Shown here piece after piece: positions 38,143 through 57,341 of a stretch of 64,000 nt of DNA. The stretch lies in the IMG/VR virus record IMGVR_UViG_2778261035_000005, one strand, 5' to 3'. Numbering within the stretch: the stretch's first letter is position 1; every line of letters starts with the position of its first letter. Source of the DNA: a virus. Lineage: Duplodnaviria > Heunggongvirae > Uroviricota > Caudoviricetes. The notes beneath the pieces are model-generated. The model did not search any database and was not told where the DNA came from. It was given only the letters and a program-made list of their open reading frames with translations. Made by a program: the position numbers and the translations under genes.

Positions 38143-41100
38143 ATGTGGTACAGGGAAGGTACTATCACATTTACACAGGGTAGCAATACCCTCGTTGGTG
38201 TTGGAACAGCCTGGAACGTAACAGCTAATGGTGTGTTGCCGGGCATGATCGTCATTGGCCCCGACAATAAGCTGTATGAGATCAAGCGCGTAACCAGTGA
38301 TACAAACATTGTTCTCTCAGAACCTTATACCGGCGAAACTCAGTCTGAAGTTCCGTGCCGAATCATTACGACCTATGAAGGTGACTTAACGCAGTTTAGC
38401 GCGCGCTTTACTGCACTAATGTCGCGTATGTCGGCTGATTCCAAGTCTATGCGCAGTTGGTTGACTGCTCTTGATGAGGTGACAATCGAGCGTGAAGACG
38501 GTACAGAAGTGACCGTTAAGCCGCTAATGCAGATCGTCAACGAGCACAACGAAAACGTTGAGTGGTATAAAAATAACACTGACGCGATTGATGCTGCTGG
38601 CGACAAAGCTCGTGAGGCGGCGGCCAGTGCTGCCGCAGCGGCAGAAAGCGCCAATACCGCTGGAGAAAAAGCATCTCAAGCGTCTCAAAGTGCATCCGCT
38701 GCGGCATCCTCACAAAGTGCTGCAAGTGCGAGTGCAACTGCTGCGAAAAGATCTGAAACGAACGCAGAGGCCGCCAAAGAAGCGGCAGCAGAATCAGCGT
38801 CTGTAGCATCGACCAAAGCATCGGAGGCTGCAATATCTGCGTCCAGTGCCTCTGCATCTAAGGATGCAGCCAAAGCATCAGAGACTAACGCTTCATCGAG
38901 TGCAAACGCGGCTGCATCATCGGCAACAGAAGCTGCAAATTCCTCTAAGGCAGCAAAAACGTCAGAGGCAAACGCAAAAGCATCTGAAACGGCAGCCGAA
39001 CAGAGTGCATCGTCTGCAAACAGTTCGAAATCTGCGGCAGAAGCGTCAGCAAGTGCAGCCTCAGCAAGTGCGGATAGTGCTTCATCAAGTGCAACAGCGG
39101 CAGGAAAATCTGCGGATAGCGCATTGTCATCCGCGACAACAGCTACCACAAAAGCGACAGAGGCGACGAGTCAGGCTACAGCTGCTAAAAATTCAGCATC
39201 GGCAGCAAAAACCTCTGAAACAAATGCAAAGACCTCAGAAGACAATGCTGCTTCCTCTAAGGCGGCAGCTGCTGAATCTGCAAGTTCTGCGTCTGCATCA
39301 GCCACCTCAGCATCCGCTTCAAAAGATGAGGCGACCAAGCAGGCATCAGCAGCGAAGAGCAGTGCTTCAACGGCATCCACGAAGGCAACAGAGGCGGCAG
39401 GCAGTGCGACAGCTGCATCTCAGAGCAAAACTGCTGCTGAATCCGCTGCGACCCGTGCGGAAGCTGCCGCTGATCGTGCTGAAGAGATTGCCGGTGCAGT
39501 TGCGATGGAAGACGCAAGCCTTACCACCAAAGGTGTTGTGAAACTTAGCAGTGCTGTCGACAGCACCAGTGAATCGCTGGCCGCAACGCCAAAAGCAGTT
39601 AAAGCAGCCAATGACAATGCGAATAGCAGGGTGCCATCTAACCGAAAAGTTAACGGTAAAGCACTGACTGCGGATATCACATTAACGCCGAAAGATATTG
39701 GTACTTTAAATTCAGTAACGATGTCTTTCTCTGGCGGGGCTGGGTGGTTCAAACTGGCTACGGTTACCATGCCACAAGCGAGTTCCATCGTTTACATCGC
39801 ATTGATTGGTGGCGCTGGTTACAACGTCGGCTCCCCACATCAGGCAGGCATTTCAGAACTGGTTCTACGAGCAGGCAATGGAAACCCCAAAGGGATTACA
39901 GGTGCTTTGTGGAAGCGTACAGCTGTCGGATTAACGAATTTCGCCTGGATCAACACATCCGGCGATACATATGATATTTACGTTGAGATTGGCAATTATG
40001 CGACGAGTGTAAATATCCATTGGGATTGTACTGCAAATGCGACAGTTTCTATTTATACATCGCCAACATATTCAGCGAGTAAGCCTTCCAGCGTTACCGA
40101 TGGTGTTGTTTATACGATGTATAGCACACATCAGAAACCGACGCCGTTAGATATTGGTGCACTGCCAACAACCGGAGGAACAGTTTCAGGTCCGTTGTCT
40201 GTTACTGGTGGGATCACCGGAACATTAAATGGTAATGCAAGTACAGCAACGAAATTACAGACGGCAAGATCTATCGGTGGAGTTGGTTTCGACGGTTCTG
40301 CCAATATTAATCTTCCAGGTGTAAACACTACGGGTAATCAGAACACCACTGGTAATGCCGCAACTGCTACAAAACTACAGACGGCAAGAACTATCGGCGG
40401 CGTGAGCTTTGATGGTACTGCAAATATTAATTTGCCAGGTGTTAATACGACTGGTAATCAGAATACAACAGGTAATGCGGCTACTGCTACGAAGTTGCAG
40501 ACTGCGCGTACTATTAATGGGGTGTCGTTTGACGGTTCGGCAAATATTTCCTTGTCACCAGCAAATATAGGTTGCCCAGCATCTCCTACTGGTTGGTTAA
40601 CTACAGGAAGTAATGGCGGAGCAATAACAACAGCCCAGTTAGTGACGTTATTGCAAAATAATGGAGCCTTTAACACAAAGTCATGGATTGCTCGATGTGC
40701 GTGGGCCTATGCCAATAGTGCAACCATACCAAATAGTGAAACTGGTTGTGGCGTTATTCCATTGGCAGGAGCTGTTATAGAGGTATTTAATAACGGTAGT
40801 AGCTCAAACAATTATACGATCCGTATAACAACGGCCACAACGACGAGTGTCTCTGGTGCTCTCACTAATGCGGAGTTTATCTATGTATTTAATGGCACAG
40901 ATTATTCTCCAGGATGGCGAAGAGTATATAACACGAAAAACAAACCAACAGCCTCTGATGTCGGTGCATTACCTCTTACCGGTGGTACATTATCTGGAGG
41001 TTTGACATCTTCTGGCGAGATCATTTCAAAATATGCAAATGGTTTCCGCATTGCTTACGGTAGCTTTGGGTTCTTTATCCGTAATGATGGGTCGAACACA

Positions 41101-42189: not shown

Positions 42190-42221
42190 GGCTGTGAGGT
42201 TTAAAATGCGATCTCACAGCC
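42190..42221 (+). terminator. terminator after tail fibre gene
   Basis: ggctgtgag...ctcacagcc hairpin. Confidence 0.55.
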
Positions 42222-42290
42222 GCAATCATAGGGATATATTAGTGAGTTACTAGATACGAATTTGAACAGCCGTTAAACGGTATATACATA

Positions 42291-42310: not shown

Positions 42311-42373
42311 TAATTGAAAGGAGAAGTGTGATATAAATCCGCCATCCCGATTTGACTTTTCATGGAGGAAAAC

Positions 42374-42697
42374 ATGTCGAACGAGATGGCGGGCGTTACA
42401 ACAGAGCAAGTTGAGCGTATAGCCGCGATCGTTGCTCGGGAGGTTGTTGGCAAATTAGGTAAAGAGCTACGTGAAGAAATTGGCCAGGAGGTCAATGATC
42501 AGCTGAAAACCTACTTTGGTGATATGACCCCGGCGCAACATAGTATTCAACACTCCAATCTGGACAAACTCCTTAACCGGTTAGATTCCATCTCAAGTGG
42601 GTTCTTTGGCGGCATTGTTTCTAAAATAACGTCGTTCATTATTACCGCACTGCTTTTGGGGTTAGCCGCGTATGGCGTAAAAAGTGGACTGCAATAA
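42374..42697 (+). CDS. holin candidate (small protein with C-terminal TM helix)
   Basis: ggagg RBS before ATG 42374; hydrophobic ITSFIITALLLGLAAYGV; first gene of lysis cassette. Confidence 0.4.
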   Translation: MSNEMAGVTTEQVERIAAIVAREVVGKLGKELREEIGQEVNDQLKTYFGDMTPAQHSIQHSNLDKLLNRLDSISSGFFGGIVSKITSFIITALLLGLAAYGVKSGLQ

Positions 42698-42710
42698 CAG
42701 GAGATCAAGG

Positions 42711-43403
42711 ATGAAGACTCCGAGAGGCATTCGTAATAATAACCCCGGTAATCTTGATAAAGGATCACCGTGGCAAGGTCTGGTTGCGAATCCAGACGAA
42801 CCGCGCTTTTGCACGTTTAAAGACCCTGTTTGGGGGATTCGTGCGCTGGCGGTGACTCTAATTACCTACCACGATAAACGTCGCGCAAAAGACGGCACAA
42901 GTATCGATACCATTCGTGAAGTTATTGAACGCTGGGCACCGCCGAATGAAAACAATACTGACGCCTACATTAATGAGGTTTCTAAAGCCGTTGGTGTAAC
43001 CGCAGACATGATCATCGATCTGCATGATTACGACATCCTTCGACCTTTGGTTGAGGCAATCATTCGCCACGAGAATGGCCGAGGCCCGCTAAAAACGCTG
43101 AACACCTGGTATGCGGCAGAAGTTATTGAGGAAGGTCTGCGTCGAGCTGGCGTTGTTAAGCCGGTGAAAACCGTGAAGGCTGTTCCTGTAACTAAAGAAA
43201 CCGCAGGCGCAACTGTTACAGCAGGTATTGGTCTGGCGCAGCTGGCCGATGTTATGCCGCAGGTTTCCGCTGCTATGGATAAAGCACAAGGTCATATCTC
43301 TAGCGGGGATACAGTACGCATCATCTTCGGTATTGCCACTATTGTTGTGGCAGGATTCATTGCCTGGTCGCAGGTAAGAAAACATCAGAAAGGGATGGTC
43401 TAA
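42711..43403 (+). CDS. endolysin candidate with C-terminal membrane anchor (family not recognised)
   Basis: Position holin-X-Rz-Rz1; caggag RBS before ATG 42711; C-terminal hydrophobic helix. Confidence 0.35.
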   Translation: MKTPRGIRNNNPGNLDKGSPWQGLVANPDEPRFCTFKDPVWGIRALAVTLITYHDKRRAKDGTSIDTIREVIERWAPPNENNTDAYINEVSKAVGVTADMIIDLHDYDILRPLVEAIIRHENGRGPLKTLNTWYAAEVIEEGLRRAGVVKPVKTVKAVPVTKETAGATVTAGIGLAQLADVMPQVSAAMDKAQGHISSGDTVRIIFGIATIVVAGFIAWSQVRKHQKGMV

Positions 43404-43404
43404 T

Positions 43405-43656
43405 ATGCTAGGCAGCCTGATGACAAAGCTAAAAGTTGCTTTGATTACGCTGGCTGCCGTTCTTTTCGTTCTTGTCGGCGCTTACACGATGGGCGGGAAT
43501 GCGGCGCGACGAGCAATGGAAGAGAAGGCAAAACAGGAAGACAGAAAACGACTTCAAAGCACAGTGGAAGTGGTGAATGAGACGAGCAATAAAATACGTC
43601 AGAAAGATGCTTCTGCCGTTCATCGTGAGTTGTATGATAAGTGGGTGCGTCATTAA
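43405..43656 (+). CDS. i-spanin (Rz-like)
   Basis: N-terminal TM helix then charged coiled-coil-like segment; 83 aa. Confidence 0.6.
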   Translation: MLGSLMTKLKVALITLAAVLFVLVGAYTMGGNAARRAMEEKAKQEDRKRLQSTVEVVNETSNKIRQKDASAVHRELYDKWVRH

Positions 43657-43792
43657 ACCACAAACCGCCAGCGTATTGTTCTGCGATGGAGCTGGGCCTA
43701 TCTATATCAGCAATAATGATGTGATGACCGAAGAAACCGAACGCCAAATCCTTTTTCACAATACGATGGGAGAGAGAGTTTGCGGTTGGTGA
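43607..43792 (+). CDS. o-spanin (Rz1-like lipoprotein), overlapping Rz out of frame
   Basis: Lipobox MISGC; starts inside Rz in another frame and extends beyond it. Confidence 0.55.
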   Translation: MLLPFIVSCMISGCVIKPQTASVLFCDGAGPIYISNNDVMTEETERQILFHNTMGERVCGW

Positions 43793-43799
43793 TGCGAAG

Positions 43800-43817
43800 T
43801 TCCCCTCACTTGAGGGG
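43800..43817. terminator. bidirectional terminator between lysis genes and toxin gene
   Basis: cccctcacttgagggg hairpin. Confidence 0.55.
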
Positions 43818-43823
43818 AGTACA

Positions 43824-44345
43824 TTATTCTTCGAACAATTTTTCGATAGATTTTGTAGGATAGAACAAAGAACGCTCGTTGTTACCAACCAGCTGGATAA
43901 AGCCTAAACTTTTATAAAACGCCTTGGCTTTGTCATTTAACGCCTCAACGAAAAGTCCATGAATGCCTACAGCAAGAGATGCATTGTACACAACGCGCAT
44001 TGCATGTGTTACAAGCATTGAGCCAAATCCTTGACCTTGAAGGGACTTGTCCAAAGCCAGCCTACCCAAAGTAACACTTGGAACATTCCGATAAGGTACC
44101 TTCTTTTGCTGGCTTCTTGAAGGTAAGGACTCCTTTTCAAAGCAGCTACCTGACAAAGTGTAATACCCTAACACTTTTGGTCTGCCTTCTTTCGTGCAAA
44201 GCACATAAGCGCGAAGAATTTTTCCCTCATGCTGCCTTTTTAAGTGGTTGGTTAAAAAGGCATTTAGTGATTCTTCACCGCAATCAAAACCATTCAAATC
44301 ATAATCTTTCTCTCCAGAGAAAATTTCTATCTTTATATTATCCAC
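43824..44345 (-). CDS. GNAT-family acetyltransferase toxin (TacT/AtaT-like)
   Basis: GNAT motif GRLALDKSLQGQGFGSMLV; immediately downstream of DUF1778-type antitoxin. Confidence 0.75.
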   Translation of the reverse strand: MDNIKIEIFSGEKDYDLNGFDCGEESLNAFLTNHLKRQHEGKILRAYVLCTKEGRPKVLGYYTLSGSCFEKESLPSRSQQKKVPYRNVPSVTLGRLALDKSLQGQGFGSMLVTHAMRVVYNASLAVGIHGLFVEALNDKAKAFYKSLGFIQLVGNNERSLFYPTKSIEKLFEE

Positions 44346-44352
44346 GAGTAAA

Positions 44353-44622
44353 CTACTCCATGCTTTTCAGACGATCAGCAGCTCGTTTCAGCTTGTCGTT
44401 CGGTGCCGGAGGATTGCTTATAGCGTCCATAACCAGATTCCAGGATTCTTCATTCAGAACTAGTCTACGGTGTTGCTCTATAACTTTCACGGCACGTTCA
44501 GATGCACTGCTAACCATAAACTGAGTAATGCTCTGGTTAGACATTGCGGCAGCTTCCTCGATGATGCTTTTATCGTCATCGGTTAATCTCAAATCGATGC
44601 GCTGCTTTTTTAGTGCTGACAT
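44353..44622 (-). CDS. DUF1778/RHH antitoxin (TacA/AtaR-like)
   Basis: MSALKKQRIDLRLTDDDKSIIEEAA... characteristic N-terminus; antitoxin-first order. Confidence 0.75.
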   Translation of the reverse strand: MSALKKQRIDLRLTDDDKSIIEEAAAMSNQSITQFMVSSASERAVKVIEQHRRLVLNEESWNLVMDAISNPPAPNDKLKRAADRLKSME

Positions 44623-44890
44623 GTATTCCTCCTGATGGCCGTGATGTAGGAAGGCCATCAATCTCCTCTGTTCAAACTGAGTTTTCGACTCAAAAATTAC
44701 TTTAAAAGGCTATAGCCCATTACGTGTGCATTATCAAATTGTGTACGGCATATCACCGTACTTGTAATATAGAGGTCATTGTTACTTTTTTCAACAGACA
44801 AATACAAGCTATGATTGCCAATTGTTAATCACAACCTACCATTTAACCTTTACACCGCAGCCGTAGGCATTTAGGCTATATCACATATAA

Positions 44891-44940: not shown

Positions 44941-45609
44941 ATGACCAAGATCTTTGTGGTTGGCGGCACAAAGGGCGGGCCTGGCAAATCCACCGTTGCC
45001 CAGCAAATTGCCGTTTGCCTGAAAGTCAAAAAGAAGAAGAAGGTTTATATCACTGATATAGATATTCAGCGCACGACAACAAGCTGGTGTGAAGACCGTC
45101 GACAGAACGAAGACCTTGAGCTGATTCCTTTTGCATACGTTCAGGATGACATCATTAAGCACCTAAAATCGCTTCAGGGTAGAGCTGAGTTTGTAGTGGT
45201 AGATGCTGGTGGCTTTGACTCCGAAATTCAGCGACAAGCGATGCTGATGGCCGACGTTATCATTATCCCGCTTCGTCCTAAGCGTCGTGATTTGAAATCT
45301 CTGCGTGACATCGATCCTATTATCGACAATGTTCGTAATGTAAACGATAAAGTGAAGGTCCGCGCGGTCATGAACCAGTGCCCGGCTTTGCCATCACAAG
45401 TGTCTCGCATTCTGGCGGCTAAAGAGATTGTCGAGACGTTTGGCATCGAGTCTGCGCCAGTCAATCTATATAACCGCAACGTCTACGATGATGCGGAAGA
45501 GTCTGGTCGTTCTATCTTTGAAATGACCGGTAGCGAGCGCGACAAAAAGGCGGAAGCCGAGTTTGAAGAATTTGTAGATTATCTGTTGAGTCTGGAGGAA
45601 GAAGAATAA
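44941..45609 (+). CDS. parA: ParA-family partition ATPase
   Basis: Deviant Walker A GGTKGGPGKST; 222 aa. Confidence 0.85.
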   Translation: MTKIFVVGGTKGGPGKSTVAQQIAVCLKVKKKKKVYITDIDIQRTTTSWCEDRRQNEDLELIPFAYVQDDIIKHLKSLQGRAEFVVVDAGGFDSEIQRQAMLMADVIIIPLRPKRRDLKSLRDIDPIIDNVRNVNDKVKVRAVMNQCPALPSQVSRILAAKEIVETFGIESAPVNLYNRNVYDDAEESGRSIFEMTGSERDKKAEAEFEEFVDYLLSLEEEE

Positions 45610-56888: not shown

Positions 56889-56963
56889 GATGGTGTAGCT
56901 CAGCGGTAGAGCAGTTGGCTGTTAACCAACTGGTCGGTGGTTCGAATCCACCCACCATCGCCA
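56889..56963 (+). tRNA. tRNA-Asn (anticodon GTT)
   Basis: Cloverleaf read by hand: acceptor gatggtg/caccatc, anticodon loop ctGTTaa, T-loop ggtggttcgaatccacc, 3' CCA. Confidence 0.85.
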
Positions 56964-56965
56964 AT

Positions 56966-57041
56966 GCCGGTTTAGCTCAGTTGGTAGAGCACCTGCCTTG
57001 TAAGCAGGATGTCAGCGGTTCGAATCCGTTAACCGGCACCA
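56966..57041 (+). tRNA. tRNA-Thr (anticodon TGT)
   Basis: acceptor gccggtt/aaccggc, anticodon stem cctgc/gcagg, loop ctTGTaa, T-loop ttcgaat, 3' CCA. Confidence 0.85.
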
Positions 57042-57254
57042 ACACAACAGGAAAGAGCATTGAGAACCGCCGAGACTGCCCTGTTTGAAGCGTAAGTCCG
57101 TGCAAACGTCATACAGTGCTCTTTTCGTTGTGGTGAATGCGGCTAAGCGCACGCGGGGAAATGGTTATATTGATCCTTTGTGATGACTATTGGCTCCGTC
57201 CACGGTGGATAACCAGCCAAAGGACACCGGGAAGCACCCGGCACCACAACAATT

Positions 57255-57341
57255 GGAGAGTAGGGAGCATGGTGCTCAAGCGGTCTTGAAAACCGTCCCA
57301 TTGCGCAAGCGATGATGGTTCGATTCCATTACTCTCCGCCA
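57255..57341 (+). tRNA. tRNA-Ser-like (anticodon TGA, long variable arm), D-arm atypical
   Basis: acceptor ggagagt/actctcc, anticodon loop ctTGAaa, variable-arm hairpin cattgc-gcaa-gcgatg, T-loop ggttcgattcc, 3' CCA. Confidence 0.6.

Follow-up and report, generated by a model that had tools for sequence, protein, structure and literature searches.

The lysis region in a 64,000-nucleotide stretch of Caudoviricetes DNA, referred to here as the window, raises two questions: to which family does the protein in the endolysin position belong, and how could an enzyme with its membrane segment at the C-terminus reach the cell wall? Four co-oriented genes were called as open reading frames at 42374-43792, coding for a 107-aa membrane protein, a 230-aa lysin, an 83-aa i-spanin and an o-spanin lipoprotein (Table 1). 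The initial annotation had read this order as a lysis cassette, and both the reading frames and the PHROG matches agree with it. Downstream of the tail genes, the lysin gene is flanked by the holin slot on one side and by the spanins on the other. This arrangement is not due to chance, because a 1.7-kb block recurs across plasmid and phage records (379 and 6 records, respectively, at a coverage of at least 80%) and 2004 homologues of the lysin were found at E<=1e-5. Jointly with the explanation favoured below, we consider it probable that an SSU5-like phage-plasmid of E. coli has its late lysis cassette here.

Table 1. Features of the lysis region, in positions of the window
Feature	Position	Strand	Basis
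Putative holin or lysis regulator, 107 aa	42374..42697	+	ORF; ATG after GGAGG Shine-Dalgarno
Enc34/M4Lys-type endolysin, 230 aa, whole gene	42711..43403	+	ORF; ATG after AGGAG; homology
Lysin catalytic domain, residues 1-146	42711..43148	+	Alignment to 7Q47
Lysin PVTKET motif and helix H1, residues 159-192	43185..43286	+	Conservation, hydropathy, 59 homologues
Lysin helix H2, strong TMD, residues 199-226	43305..43388	+	KD19 2.07, entropy profile
i-spanin (Rz-like), 83 aa	43405..43656	+	PHROG 1026, N-terminal TMD
o-spanin (Rz1-like) lipoprotein, 71 aa	43577..43792	+	PHROG 1275, lipobox ISGC
GC-rich hairpin GTTCCCCTCACTTGAGGGGAGT	43799..43820	.	Terminator-like consensus match

Regarding signals of transcription, a sigma-70 promoter scan 5' of the cassette gave a single weak match (42213-42240) that was not better than in shuffled sequence. 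The hairpin separates the cassette end from a convergent GNAT-toxin gene and is likely to act as a shared terminator; it is a consensus match only, as terminator-like matches in the region were no more numerous than in shuffled sequence.

To place the lysin, sequence and structure searches were combined. With phmmer, query residues 3-151 matched PDB entry 7Q47, the endolysin catalytic domain of Hafnia phage Enc34, at E=6.8e-54, with the motif IIRHENG aligned. In Foldseek, 7q47 was the top PDB match of the AF2 model (TMt 0.82, E=1e-15, 58-59% identity), which has pLDDT values of 80-96 across residues 31-150. PHROG 873 'endolysin' matched residues 1-223 at 3e-88. In the alignment to 7Q47, lysin residues W75, Y86 and E121 (codon 43071-43073), invariant across 28 homologues, correspond to Enc34 Trp79, Tyr95 and Glu131, which are catalytically important (PMC8943055). 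Aligned from end to end, together with its membrane module, the lysin is 55% identical to the endolysin of Chivirus SPN19, which has been grouped with M4Lys in a study where the endolysins of Chi-like phages were 97-99% identical to one another (PMC7143992). The lysin thus shows the catalytic-domain homology, the Trp/Tyr/Glu signature, the C-terminal membrane domain and the cassette position of the Enc34/M4Lys type. On these comparisons it is almost certainly an Enc34/M4Lys/Siskin-type endolysin (PHA02564 domain) and the endolysin of this phage. The initial annotation had left the protein outside the known lysin families, a view overturned by the domain and structure searches; its difficulty is explained by Pfam-A and NCBIfam, which hold no model for the domain and in which none of the four cassette products matched a family at threshold.

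The catalytic domain is modelled as an all-helical, GH73/GH23-related glycosidase fold, with Glu121 as the predicted catalytic residue. Relatives of the lysin have been reported as beta-N-acetylglucosaminidase, distantly related to GH73/GH23, and the Enc34 and M4Lys catalytic domains both have muralytic activity (PMC8943055, PMC7143992). This activity and TMD-dependent lysis are known only from Enc34 ORF39 and M4Lys, the closest assayed relative being about 55-59% identical to the lysin described here. Enc34 ORF39 shares with it the catalytic domain, the signature, the C-terminal two-helix module and the position in a cassette with overlapped spanins (PDB 7Q47; Cernooka et al. 2022, PMC8943055). 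The two differ in that the host of the Enc34 gene is a Chi-related siphophage, whereas the present gene is carried by an SSU5-like phage-plasmid of about 110 kb, and in that the present lysin has no counterpart of two short insertions (5 residues after WAPP, 6 after HENG). In the case of the Chi-like endolysins (BSPM4 M4Lys, SPN19, Chi, iEPS5, Siskin; PMC7143992, PMC6498227), the SPN19 alignment spans H1, the loop, H2 and the basic tail; the linker reads PVTKET in the SSU5-type and many other homologues and PVNRTT in SPN19, the Chi-type member compared. Family, fold, activity of relatives and C-terminal anchor are already published, and the assignment as such is of low value as a discovery.

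The membrane segment of the lysin is C-terminal and not an N-terminal signal-arrest-release (SAR) segment, as had been noted at the outset. Hydropathy showed one strong helix at about residues 203-222, within the stretch 194-224 (KD19 2.07), a weaker one at 164-189 (KD19 1.1) and no hydrophobic segment within residues 1-30, the first stretch with KD19 of at least 1.0 (residues 33-51) being located inside the folded catalytic domain. A C-terminal anchor is a described hallmark of Enc34/M4Lys-type endolysins (PMC6498227, PMC8943055).

To describe this module at the residue level, statistics were calculated from 59 homologues less than 80% identical. H1 has a mean KD of 1.0 and a G/A/S/T fraction of 53%, and is preceded by a Lys-rich flank. 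In its region P159, T161, A167, G174, Q177 and A188 are invariant, with E163 and P183 conserved at 98%. H2 carries a conserved small-residue/Gln stripe (G207, I211, A214, A218, Q221) followed by the basic tail RKHQKGMV. Because both helices have an invariant small-residue stripe together with an invariant Gln (A167, G174, Q177; G207, A214, A218, Q221), the conservation argues for packing of H1 and H2 by sequence-specific contacts rather than for generic anchoring. The mean net charges are +1.7 for the flank before H1, -1.3 for the H1-H2 loop and +2.25 for the C-tail. This is a positive-inside pattern, and it slightly favours an N-in/C-in hairpin with a cytoplasmic catalytic domain. In the case of the Siskin endolysin, TMHMM likewise gave N-in/C-in (PMC6498227); for M4Lys, however, Phobius and Phyre2 gave the opposite, N-out topology (PMC7143992). 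With pLDDT below 50 over residues 157-198, the AF2 model lends no structural support to the hairpin and says nothing reliable on H1/H2 packing. Our search of the literature after 2022 on Enc34/M4Lys-type endolysins found nothing that settles topology or export.

A search with the module alone (phmmer, residues 150-230, 1.84 billion representatives) returned 24 matches, among which there was neither a standalone holin-like family nor a fusion to other catalytic domains. Most matches were complete lysins of this family or fragments, together with frameshifted and chimeric calls, besides a few weak ones to very long proteins; nor did a PHROG scan of the module match any holin family. The idea of a portable module, or of homology to holins, is consequently unsupported at the sensitivity of phmmer.

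The protein encoded upstream is a putative holin or lysis regulator by gene position. It is small, adjoins the endolysin gene and has one TMD, as holins may have, with its charged hydrophilic part N-terminal: an acidic, helical soluble part of about 75 aa precedes the single C-terminal TMD ITSFIITALLLGLAAYGV, the only strongly hydrophobic stretch (KD19 maximum 2.02), after which only 5 residues follow. It matched PHROG 5093 'unknown function' at 2e-68 and showed no homology to described holin families in PHROG, Pfam or NCBIfam; the AF2 model is unreliable (pLDDT 45). Thirty homologues were found, those with a source name being from Enterobacterales and several from plasmids, and they show strong conservation of the TMD and its flank. 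A dual-start holin/antiholin motif (42362/42374/42386) was considered and rejected, as the upstream ATG has no Shine-Dalgarno sequence and Met5 is not conserved; all 11 aligned homologues start M-S/P-N/K, in register with MSNE. The Chi-type 'holin' is built as a mirror image, its TMD being N-terminal and its long soluble part C-terminal, and BLASTP found no similarity between the 107-aa protein and this partner (SPN19). When the partners encoded upstream of the lysin in Chi-like, Pasteurella and Alcaligenaceae loci were scanned against PHROG, no holin family matched. The Chi-type partner carries the PHROG label 'Rz-like spanin', which is probably a mislabel.

Downstream of the lysin, the pair has the characteristics of two-component overlapped spanins. 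The i-spanin (PHROG 1026 'Rz-like spanin' at 9e-25) has its TMD within residues 1-35, followed by a short, charged, helical periplasmic part. The o-spanin (PHROG 1275 at 2e-24) has the signal peptide MRRAIKYVRKMLLPFIVSCMISGC and the lipobox I-S-G-C at 43637-43648. As initially annotated, its gene starts inside Rz in another frame, namely +1 relative to the i-spanin gene with an 80-nt overlap, and it ends beyond that gene; an alternative start is found at 43607. Compared to the Chi-type pair, the i-spanin is weakly similar (28% identity, E=0.002), while the o-spanin shares 43% identity, its lipobox Cys and two additional Cys being among the aligned positions. The TMD, the lipobox and the +1-frame internal start are those of overlapped spanins of the P2 LysB/LysC type (Kongari et al. 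2018, PMC6139136), where the SSU5 pair is catalogued, its i-spanin as a family singleton of the overlapped class and its o-spanin in the Chi family. In contrast to the P2 LysB/LysC type, both proteins are short here, the i-spanin having 83 aa and the mature o-spanin 47 aa.

With the components described, the mode of action of the lysin could be considered. In SAR endolysins (P1 Lyz, or R21 of phage 21, which act with pinholins), an N-terminal SAR segment leads to export of the enzyme by Sec. Common to these and to the present lysin would be a membrane-tethered muralytic enzyme (here by homology) and a weak helix rich in Gly/Ala/Ser/Thr (here H1), and holin-independent lysis on over-expression is possible both for SAR endolysins and, as seen with M4Lys, in the present family. 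The module here is C-terminal, however, without a signal sequence, and M4Lys lysis is insensitive to azide. Class II holins such as the pinholin S21 have two TMDs, an N-in/C-in topology, a SAR-like first TMD and a basic C-tail. The layout of the lysin module is reminiscent of S21, in that a weak G/A/S/T-rich helix leads through a short loop into a strong helix, striped with small residues, and the module ends in a basic tail; no sequence homology was detected, and the lysin module bears a 160-residue enzyme at its N-terminus.

We propose the following sequence of events. The C-terminal module would insert as an N-in/C-in hairpin, so that the enzyme would build up on the cytoplasmic side of the inner membrane, tethered there. 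A lesion in the membrane, formed at triggering, would let the tethered enzyme reach the wall; this lesion may arise from oligomerised hairpins, acting alone or controlled by the upstream 107-aa protein. Once the wall is cut, the i-spanin/o-spanin pair would remove the outer membrane. We know of no experimentally established precedent for access to the wall by a tethered cytoplasmic enzyme through a lesion. Full-length M4Lys alone lyses E. coli, azide does not stop this lysis, the C-terminal TMD is needed for it while being bacteriostatic by itself, and co-expression of the Chi-type upstream protein with the soluble catalytic domain gave no lysis (PMC7143992). Self-lysis, azide insensitivity and TMD requirement are data for M4Lys and not for an SSU5-type lysin, and the self-lysis, which appeared only when M4Lys was strongly over-expressed, could be an artefact according to the Enc34 authors (PMC8943055). 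That permeabilisation is brought about by the C-terminal module itself is, in our estimation, a possibility of somewhat below even chances. More tentatively still, the hairpin may be a self-contained pinholin-like hole-former and the family a natural holin-endolysin fusion, which we hold to be doubtful.

Two other accounts of the export step were weighed against the hairpin. Only H2 might span the membrane (N-out/C-in), with the catalytic domain exported and held inactive or tethered in the periplasm until depolarisation by the upstream protein, then a pinholin, releases or activates it. Such a SAR-like mechanism was raised by the Enc34 authors (PMC8943055) and would account for lysis without a large-hole holin. 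It agrees with the N-out predictions for M4Lys, whose tail has 3 basic residues (PMC7143992), and with H1 remaining under the usual hydrophobicity of a TMD. However, the lysin has no signal peptide, there is no known route by which a C-terminal TMD could export a folded N-terminal domain of about 190 residues (PMC8943055), and azide did not block M4Lys lysis (PMC7143992); moreover, the Lys-rich flank and acidic loop suit a hairpin better, and the invariant residues of H1 show helical periodicity. Overall we judge the SAR-like mechanism rather unlikely. The other account makes the 107-aa protein a true large-hole holin, leaving the lysin module to concentrate the enzyme at the membrane or to tune timing without any permeabilising role. 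The gene does occupy the holin slot, an Alcaligenaceae prophage has a small protein with a soluble N-terminus and a C-terminal TMD directly 5' of a 58%-identical lysin, and TMD-less homologues of the catalytic domain act as ordinary endolysins in Seurat-like phages. Nevertheless, the missing homology to described holins, a layout that is the inverse of classical holins with their charged C-terminal tail, and a Pasteurella prophage with no TMD protein 5' of its lysin make a canonical holin unlikely. The same holds for the failure of the non-homologous Chi-type partner to release the soluble catalytic domain when the full-length lysin lysed alone (PMC7143992), and for a residue-specific conservation of H1 and H2 that exceeds the needs of an anchor.

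Two further readings concern the identity of the enzyme itself. In SP6-like podophages, D3112-like Pseudomonas phages and NO16-like phages, this catalytic domain serves as part of a virion or ejection protein. It also occurs in 'Gp29' of PDB 9vvp, described there as bacteriophage E1004 core protein, and is named 'virion protein' in the CDD entry of PHA02564. The 230-aa protein could then be a virion-associated (entry) lysin, or else an unrelated membrane protein, with the true endolysin elsewhere or unrecognised. This is highly improbable given the place of the gene in the cassette and a full-length architecture as in M4Lys, which lyses cells. The initial annotation had held that a canonical endolysin elsewhere, together with a non-lytic function of this protein, would speak against its reading. 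The independent annotations of two relatives, covering 1-100 kb of the 108 kb of Cyrano and all of the PGAP-annotated plasmid NZ_AP022089.1, list no second lysin; the sole other named hydrolase is a C40 peptidase, the tail-tip protein K. A lysin of a previously unknown family, as first implied, could appeal to the empty Pfam-A and NCBIfam scans and to the PGAP label 'hypothetical protein' in the PLSDB records listed. This reading is hardly tenable: it is refuted by the highly significant phmmer and Foldseek matches to 7Q47, from a crystallised and assayed endolysin family, and the gene is already named endolysin in phage records.

Among these records is Escherichia phage Cyrano (pLF82), which makes virions (PMC9928086) and in which a gene annotated "Endolysin" has a product 100% identical in amino-acid sequence to the present lysin. 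SSU5 is annotated in the same manner, the upstream gene being called 'putative holin' in SSU5 and 'Holin' in Cyrano. The cassette DNA is present in 408 PLSDB plasmids. As no Pfam-A or NCBIfam model exists for the catalytic domain, RefSeq/PGAP gives the lysin and the adjacent genes the label 'hypothetical protein' in the plasmid records listed, and the PGAP plasmid gene table examined has no entry for the o-spanin. A family model for the catalytic domain would mend this labelling. The cassette is carried by about 400 SSU5-like phage-plasmids of Enterobacterales, and some SSU5-like phage-plasmids bear ESBL genes (PMC5427194).

If the lysin were indeed a natural holin-endolysin fusion, its enzyme would be kept on the cytoplasmic side until lesions produced by its own tail opened a way to the wall. 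For the unrelated upstream membrane proteins, whether tail-anchored as in SSU5-like and Alcaligenaceae elements or with an N-terminal TMD as in Chi-like phages, this would mean a role as timers or inhibitors and not as holins. SSU5-like phage-plasmids, among them the inducible pLF82/Cyrano, add a further system that is open to genetics and differs in its upstream partner, for the export and triggering of C-terminally anchored endolysins.

When open reading frames, hydropathy and frames were inspected, the features described in the initial annotation, namely the gene order, the C-terminal transmembrane helix of the 230-aa protein and the overlapping o-spanin with its ISGC lipobox, were correct in every particular. 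The four co-oriented genes lie between a tail-fibre gene and a convergent GNAT-toxin/antitoxin pair, and a GC-rich hairpin is common to the cassette and this pair. The tail fibre, a P1 S homologue in the annotation of Escherichia phage Cyrano, has a long, low-complexity N-terminal third rich in Ala/Ser/Thr, with the motif 'GVNTTGNQNTTGNAATATKLQTAR' occurring three times along with shorter 'NGNASTATKLQTAR' variants.

Features of the lysis cassette and its surroundings (window coordinates)
Feature	Position	Strand	Remarks
Tail fibre, 1342 aa	38143-42171	+	
107-aa membrane protein	42374-42697	+	ATG after GGAGG
230-aa lysin	42711-43403	+	strong helix ~203-222, weaker 164-189 (hydropathy)
PVTKET segment of lysin	43185-43202		residues 159-164
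i-spanin, 83 aa	43405-43656	+	N-terminal TMD (hydropathy)
o-spanin, 71 aa	43577-43792	+	+1 frame, 80-nt overlap with i-spanin gene; lipoprotein signal ending in lipobox ISGC
GC-rich hairpin	43799-43820		3' of last cassette stop codon
GNAT acetyltransferase toxin (KacT/TacT-like) and DUF1778 antitoxin	43824-44345 and 44353-44661	-	directly after cassette, convergent
ParA-like partition ATPase	44941-45609		follows GNAT/DUF1778 pair
tRNA cluster	56889-57341		Asn-GTT, Thr-TGT, Ser-TGA

The 230-aa protein had been regarded as an unassigned lysin, a view that does not hold, as domain and structure searches place it in the Enc34-type endolysin family. Domain scans returned no Pfam-A or NCBIfam model, which explains why it could not be placed initially. 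PHROG 873 ('endolysin') matched residues 1-223 (3e-88), and phmmer against PDB sequences detected 7Q47, which is the endolysin catalytic domain of Hafnia phage Enc34 (E=6.8e-54). With 28 homologues as input, AlphaFold2 gave a model whose 10-residue block mean pLDDT values were 80-96 over the catalytic domain (residues 31-150) and whose best PDB match was again 7q47 (target-normalised TM-score 0.82, 59% identity). The Enc34 domain is distantly related to GH73 and GH23 and carries the conserved catalytic signature Glu131, Trp79 and Tyr95 (Cernooka et al., PMC8943055). The residue alignment to 7Q47 pairs them with E121, W75 and Y86 in the window lysin, which are all invariant in the homologue alignment. 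In the case of the Chi-like homologue M4Lys, the catalytic domain degrades purified peptidoglycan to N-acetylglucosaminidase-type products (Bai et al., PMC7143992). The window lysin shares 55% identity across its whole length, including the membrane module, with the endolysin of Chivirus SPN19, which the same paper groups with M4Lys, and it shows 100% amino-acid identity to the 'Endolysin' of Cyrano. Thus, the 230-aa protein belongs to a family that is known, already annotated and solved in structure. As to a canonical endolysin elsewhere, which would speak against the lysin role, none was found in the Cyrano authors' annotation (1-100000 of 108379) or in the PGAP annotation of NZ_AP022089.1, a 110-kb plasmid covered in full: these name no lysozyme, transglycosylase, amidase or endopeptidase besides a C40 peptidase, namely tail-tip protein K. 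On these two annotations, the 230-aa protein is left as the sole endolysin candidate.

The C-terminal anchor is likewise a published hallmark of Enc34/M4Lys/Siskin-type endolysins. In the Siskin genome note, a pair of C-terminal TMDs (N-in/C-in) was predicted and a new class of endolysins proposed (PMC6498227). Full-length M4Lys by itself lyses E. coli; lysis is delayed, not blocked, by azide and is lost upon removal of the TMD or just the last 13 residues, the TMD on its own is bacteriostatic, and the soluble catalytic domain together with the upstream protein gives no lysis (PMC7143992). Full-length Enc34 endolysin is toxic, and its authors state that no route is known for export of an N-terminal domain via a C-terminal signal (PMC8943055). 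We found no later literature resolving the export mechanism of C-terminally anchored endolysins.

To describe the membrane module, 59 full-length lysin homologues sharing less than 80% identity were analysed. In this sample the module is conserved as strongly as the active site: P159, T161, A167, G174, Q177, A188, S198 and Q221 are invariant, and E163, P183, G199, G207, A214, A218 and G228 are kept at 95-98%. The first helix (H1, within residues 159-192) is weakly hydrophobic (mean KD 1.0, 53% Gly/Ala/Ser/Thr) and the second (H2, 199-226) has a KD of 1.7 with 35% Gly/Ala/Ser/Thr. Conserved small residues and one Gln recur every ~3.5 residues in H1 (A167, A171, G174, Q177), as do conserved positions in H2 (G207, I211, A214, A218, Q221); such stripes point to specific packing of helix against helix rather than to a generic anchor. 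The conserved net charge, +1.7 ahead of H1, -1.3 for the loop joining H1 and H2, and +2.25 beyond H2, follows the positive-inside expectation for a predicted N-in/C-in hairpin. On the packing stripes, the hydropathy of both helices and the charge pattern, we lean towards a C-terminal hairpin in the membrane, with the enzyme domain waiting at the cytoplasmic face. Between catalytic domain and H1, where a simple linker would be expected, PVTKET is strictly conserved; it is kept in SSU5-type and many distant homologues and reads PVNRTT in Chi-type SPN19, and may serve in an interaction or as a site of processing.

As a lead only, the module layout would seem to resemble that of a class II holin or pinholin. 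Because of this layout and the M4Lys data, the most interesting reading is a self-permeabilising 'holin-endolysin fusion', which we consider a rather doubtful proposition. Two results count against the fusion: the AlphaFold2 model is not confident over residues 157-198, and a phmmer search with the module alone against 1.84 billion representatives matched mainly Enc34-type lysins and fragments, with no standalone relatives or fusions to other catalytic domains.

The putative holin role of the 107-aa protein is assigned by position only. Upstream of its start, the in-frame ATG at 42362 lacks a ribosome-binding site, and 11/11 aligned homologues begin with M-S/P-N/K in register with MSNE. It matches PHROG 5093, labelled unknown function, and has a narrow spread (30 matches; all that have a named source come from Enterobacterales, several of them from plasmids). 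An acidic helical stretch of about 75 residues precedes one strong TMD at the extreme C-terminus, followed by five residues; classical holins have the reverse layout, and in the unrelated Chi-type partner the TMD is N-terminal and a long soluble part forms the C-terminus. Its AlphaFold2 model (pLDDT 45) was too low for use. Around distant homologues of the lysin the gene content differs: a Providencia element carries an SSU5-type partner homologue, an Alcaligenaceae prophage (L010 2205-2504) has a non-homologous 99-aa partner that overlaps the lysin start and shares the 'tail-anchored' layout of soluble N-terminus and C-terminal TMD, and a Pasteurella multocida prophage (L008 2231-2488) has an upstream 85-aa protein without a strong TMD (PHROG 3342, unknown function). 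The lysin is therefore the constant element and the partner is exchangeable, a pattern that would fit a regulator no less well than a holin. In the case of SPN19, the upstream 'lysis protein B' (putative class IV holin, L003 2150-2488) is labelled 'Rz-like spanin' by RefSeq and PHROG 7686, probably a propagated mislabel; on that strand the genuine i-spanin ORF (~L003 3199-3456) carries no annotation.

The i-spanin matches PHROG 1026 (9e-25) and the o-spanin PHROG 1275 (2e-24). Compared with the Chi-type pair, the o-spanin has 43% identity, and its lipobox Cys and two more Cys align, whereas the i-spanin shows weak similarity (28% identity, E=0.002). The SSU5 pair is catalogued, with the i-spanin as an overlapped-class singleton and the o-spanin in the Chi family (Kongari et al., PMC6139136). 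The longer o-spanin start at 43577 gives a basic n-region (MRRAIKYVRK) and a better Shine-Dalgarno sequence. Cyrano Rz1 is annotated as a 120-nt ORF (L001 7474-7593, corresponding to ~43673-43792), which by coordinate mapping appears to begin downstream of the lipobox and is probably truncated. Judged by its signal peptide, ISGC and alignment with the Chi-type o-spanin, the longer ORF is the better gene model.

The 1.7-kb cassette block is 98% identical to Cyrano (OV696614), 82% to Salmonella phage SSU5 and 100% to E. coli plasmid pWP4-S18-ESBL-07_2 (NZ_AP022089.1). It occurs in 408 PLSDB plasmids, mostly non-mobilizable replicons of Escherichia, Enterobacter, Salmonella and Citrobacter; the eight plasmids listed are ~110 kb. 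These matches mark the window as an SSU5-like phage-plasmid. Cyrano, the pLF82 element of AIEC strain LF82, spontaneously produces virions (PMC9928086), so the window cassette is presumably functional. Cyrano has the same three tRNAs, at an offset from the cassette that differs by ~2.2 kb, indicating an indel between both elements. Holin, endolysin, Rz and Rz1 are the labels that the four genes already carry in the records of Cyrano and SSU5. Among ~400 plasmids with the cassette, those whose records were listed have partner, lysin and i-spanin labelled 'hypothetical protein' by PGAP (38476-39758 in NZ_AP022089.1), a consequence of no Pfam-A/NCBIfam model existing for the Enc34-type catalytic domain; the o-spanin is absent from the incomplete PLSDB gene table of NZ_AP022089.1.

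In phage genomes, tblastn with the lysin matched 793 records. Matches cover at least 80% of the query in 182 of these, which therefore include the membrane module; those listed are mainly Chi-like (Salmonella), plus Proteus, Erwinia and Serratia phages. The remaining records have the catalytic domain alone. It forms a small soluble endolysin in Seurat-like phages, whereas in SP6-like podophages, D3112-like Pseudomonas phages and NO16-like phages it is part of virion or ejection proteins; Gp29 (PDB 9vvp), which the entry calls a core protein of bacteriophage E1004, also has it. The Enc34 paper confines the C-terminal-TMD architecture to relatives of Chivirus (PMC8943055). This is too narrow, since SSU5-like phage-plasmids share the full-length architecture, as do contigs (in part prophages) of Xenorhabdus, Providencia, Pasteurella and Alcaligenaceae; it is an extension of range and not a new kind.

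In conclusion, the cassette is already known, as an annotated member of a published endolysin family. Its remaining value lies in the annotation gap left by Pfam and NCBIfam, which have no model, and in the mechanism of C-terminally anchored endolysins, for which the module analysis may offer indirect computational support.
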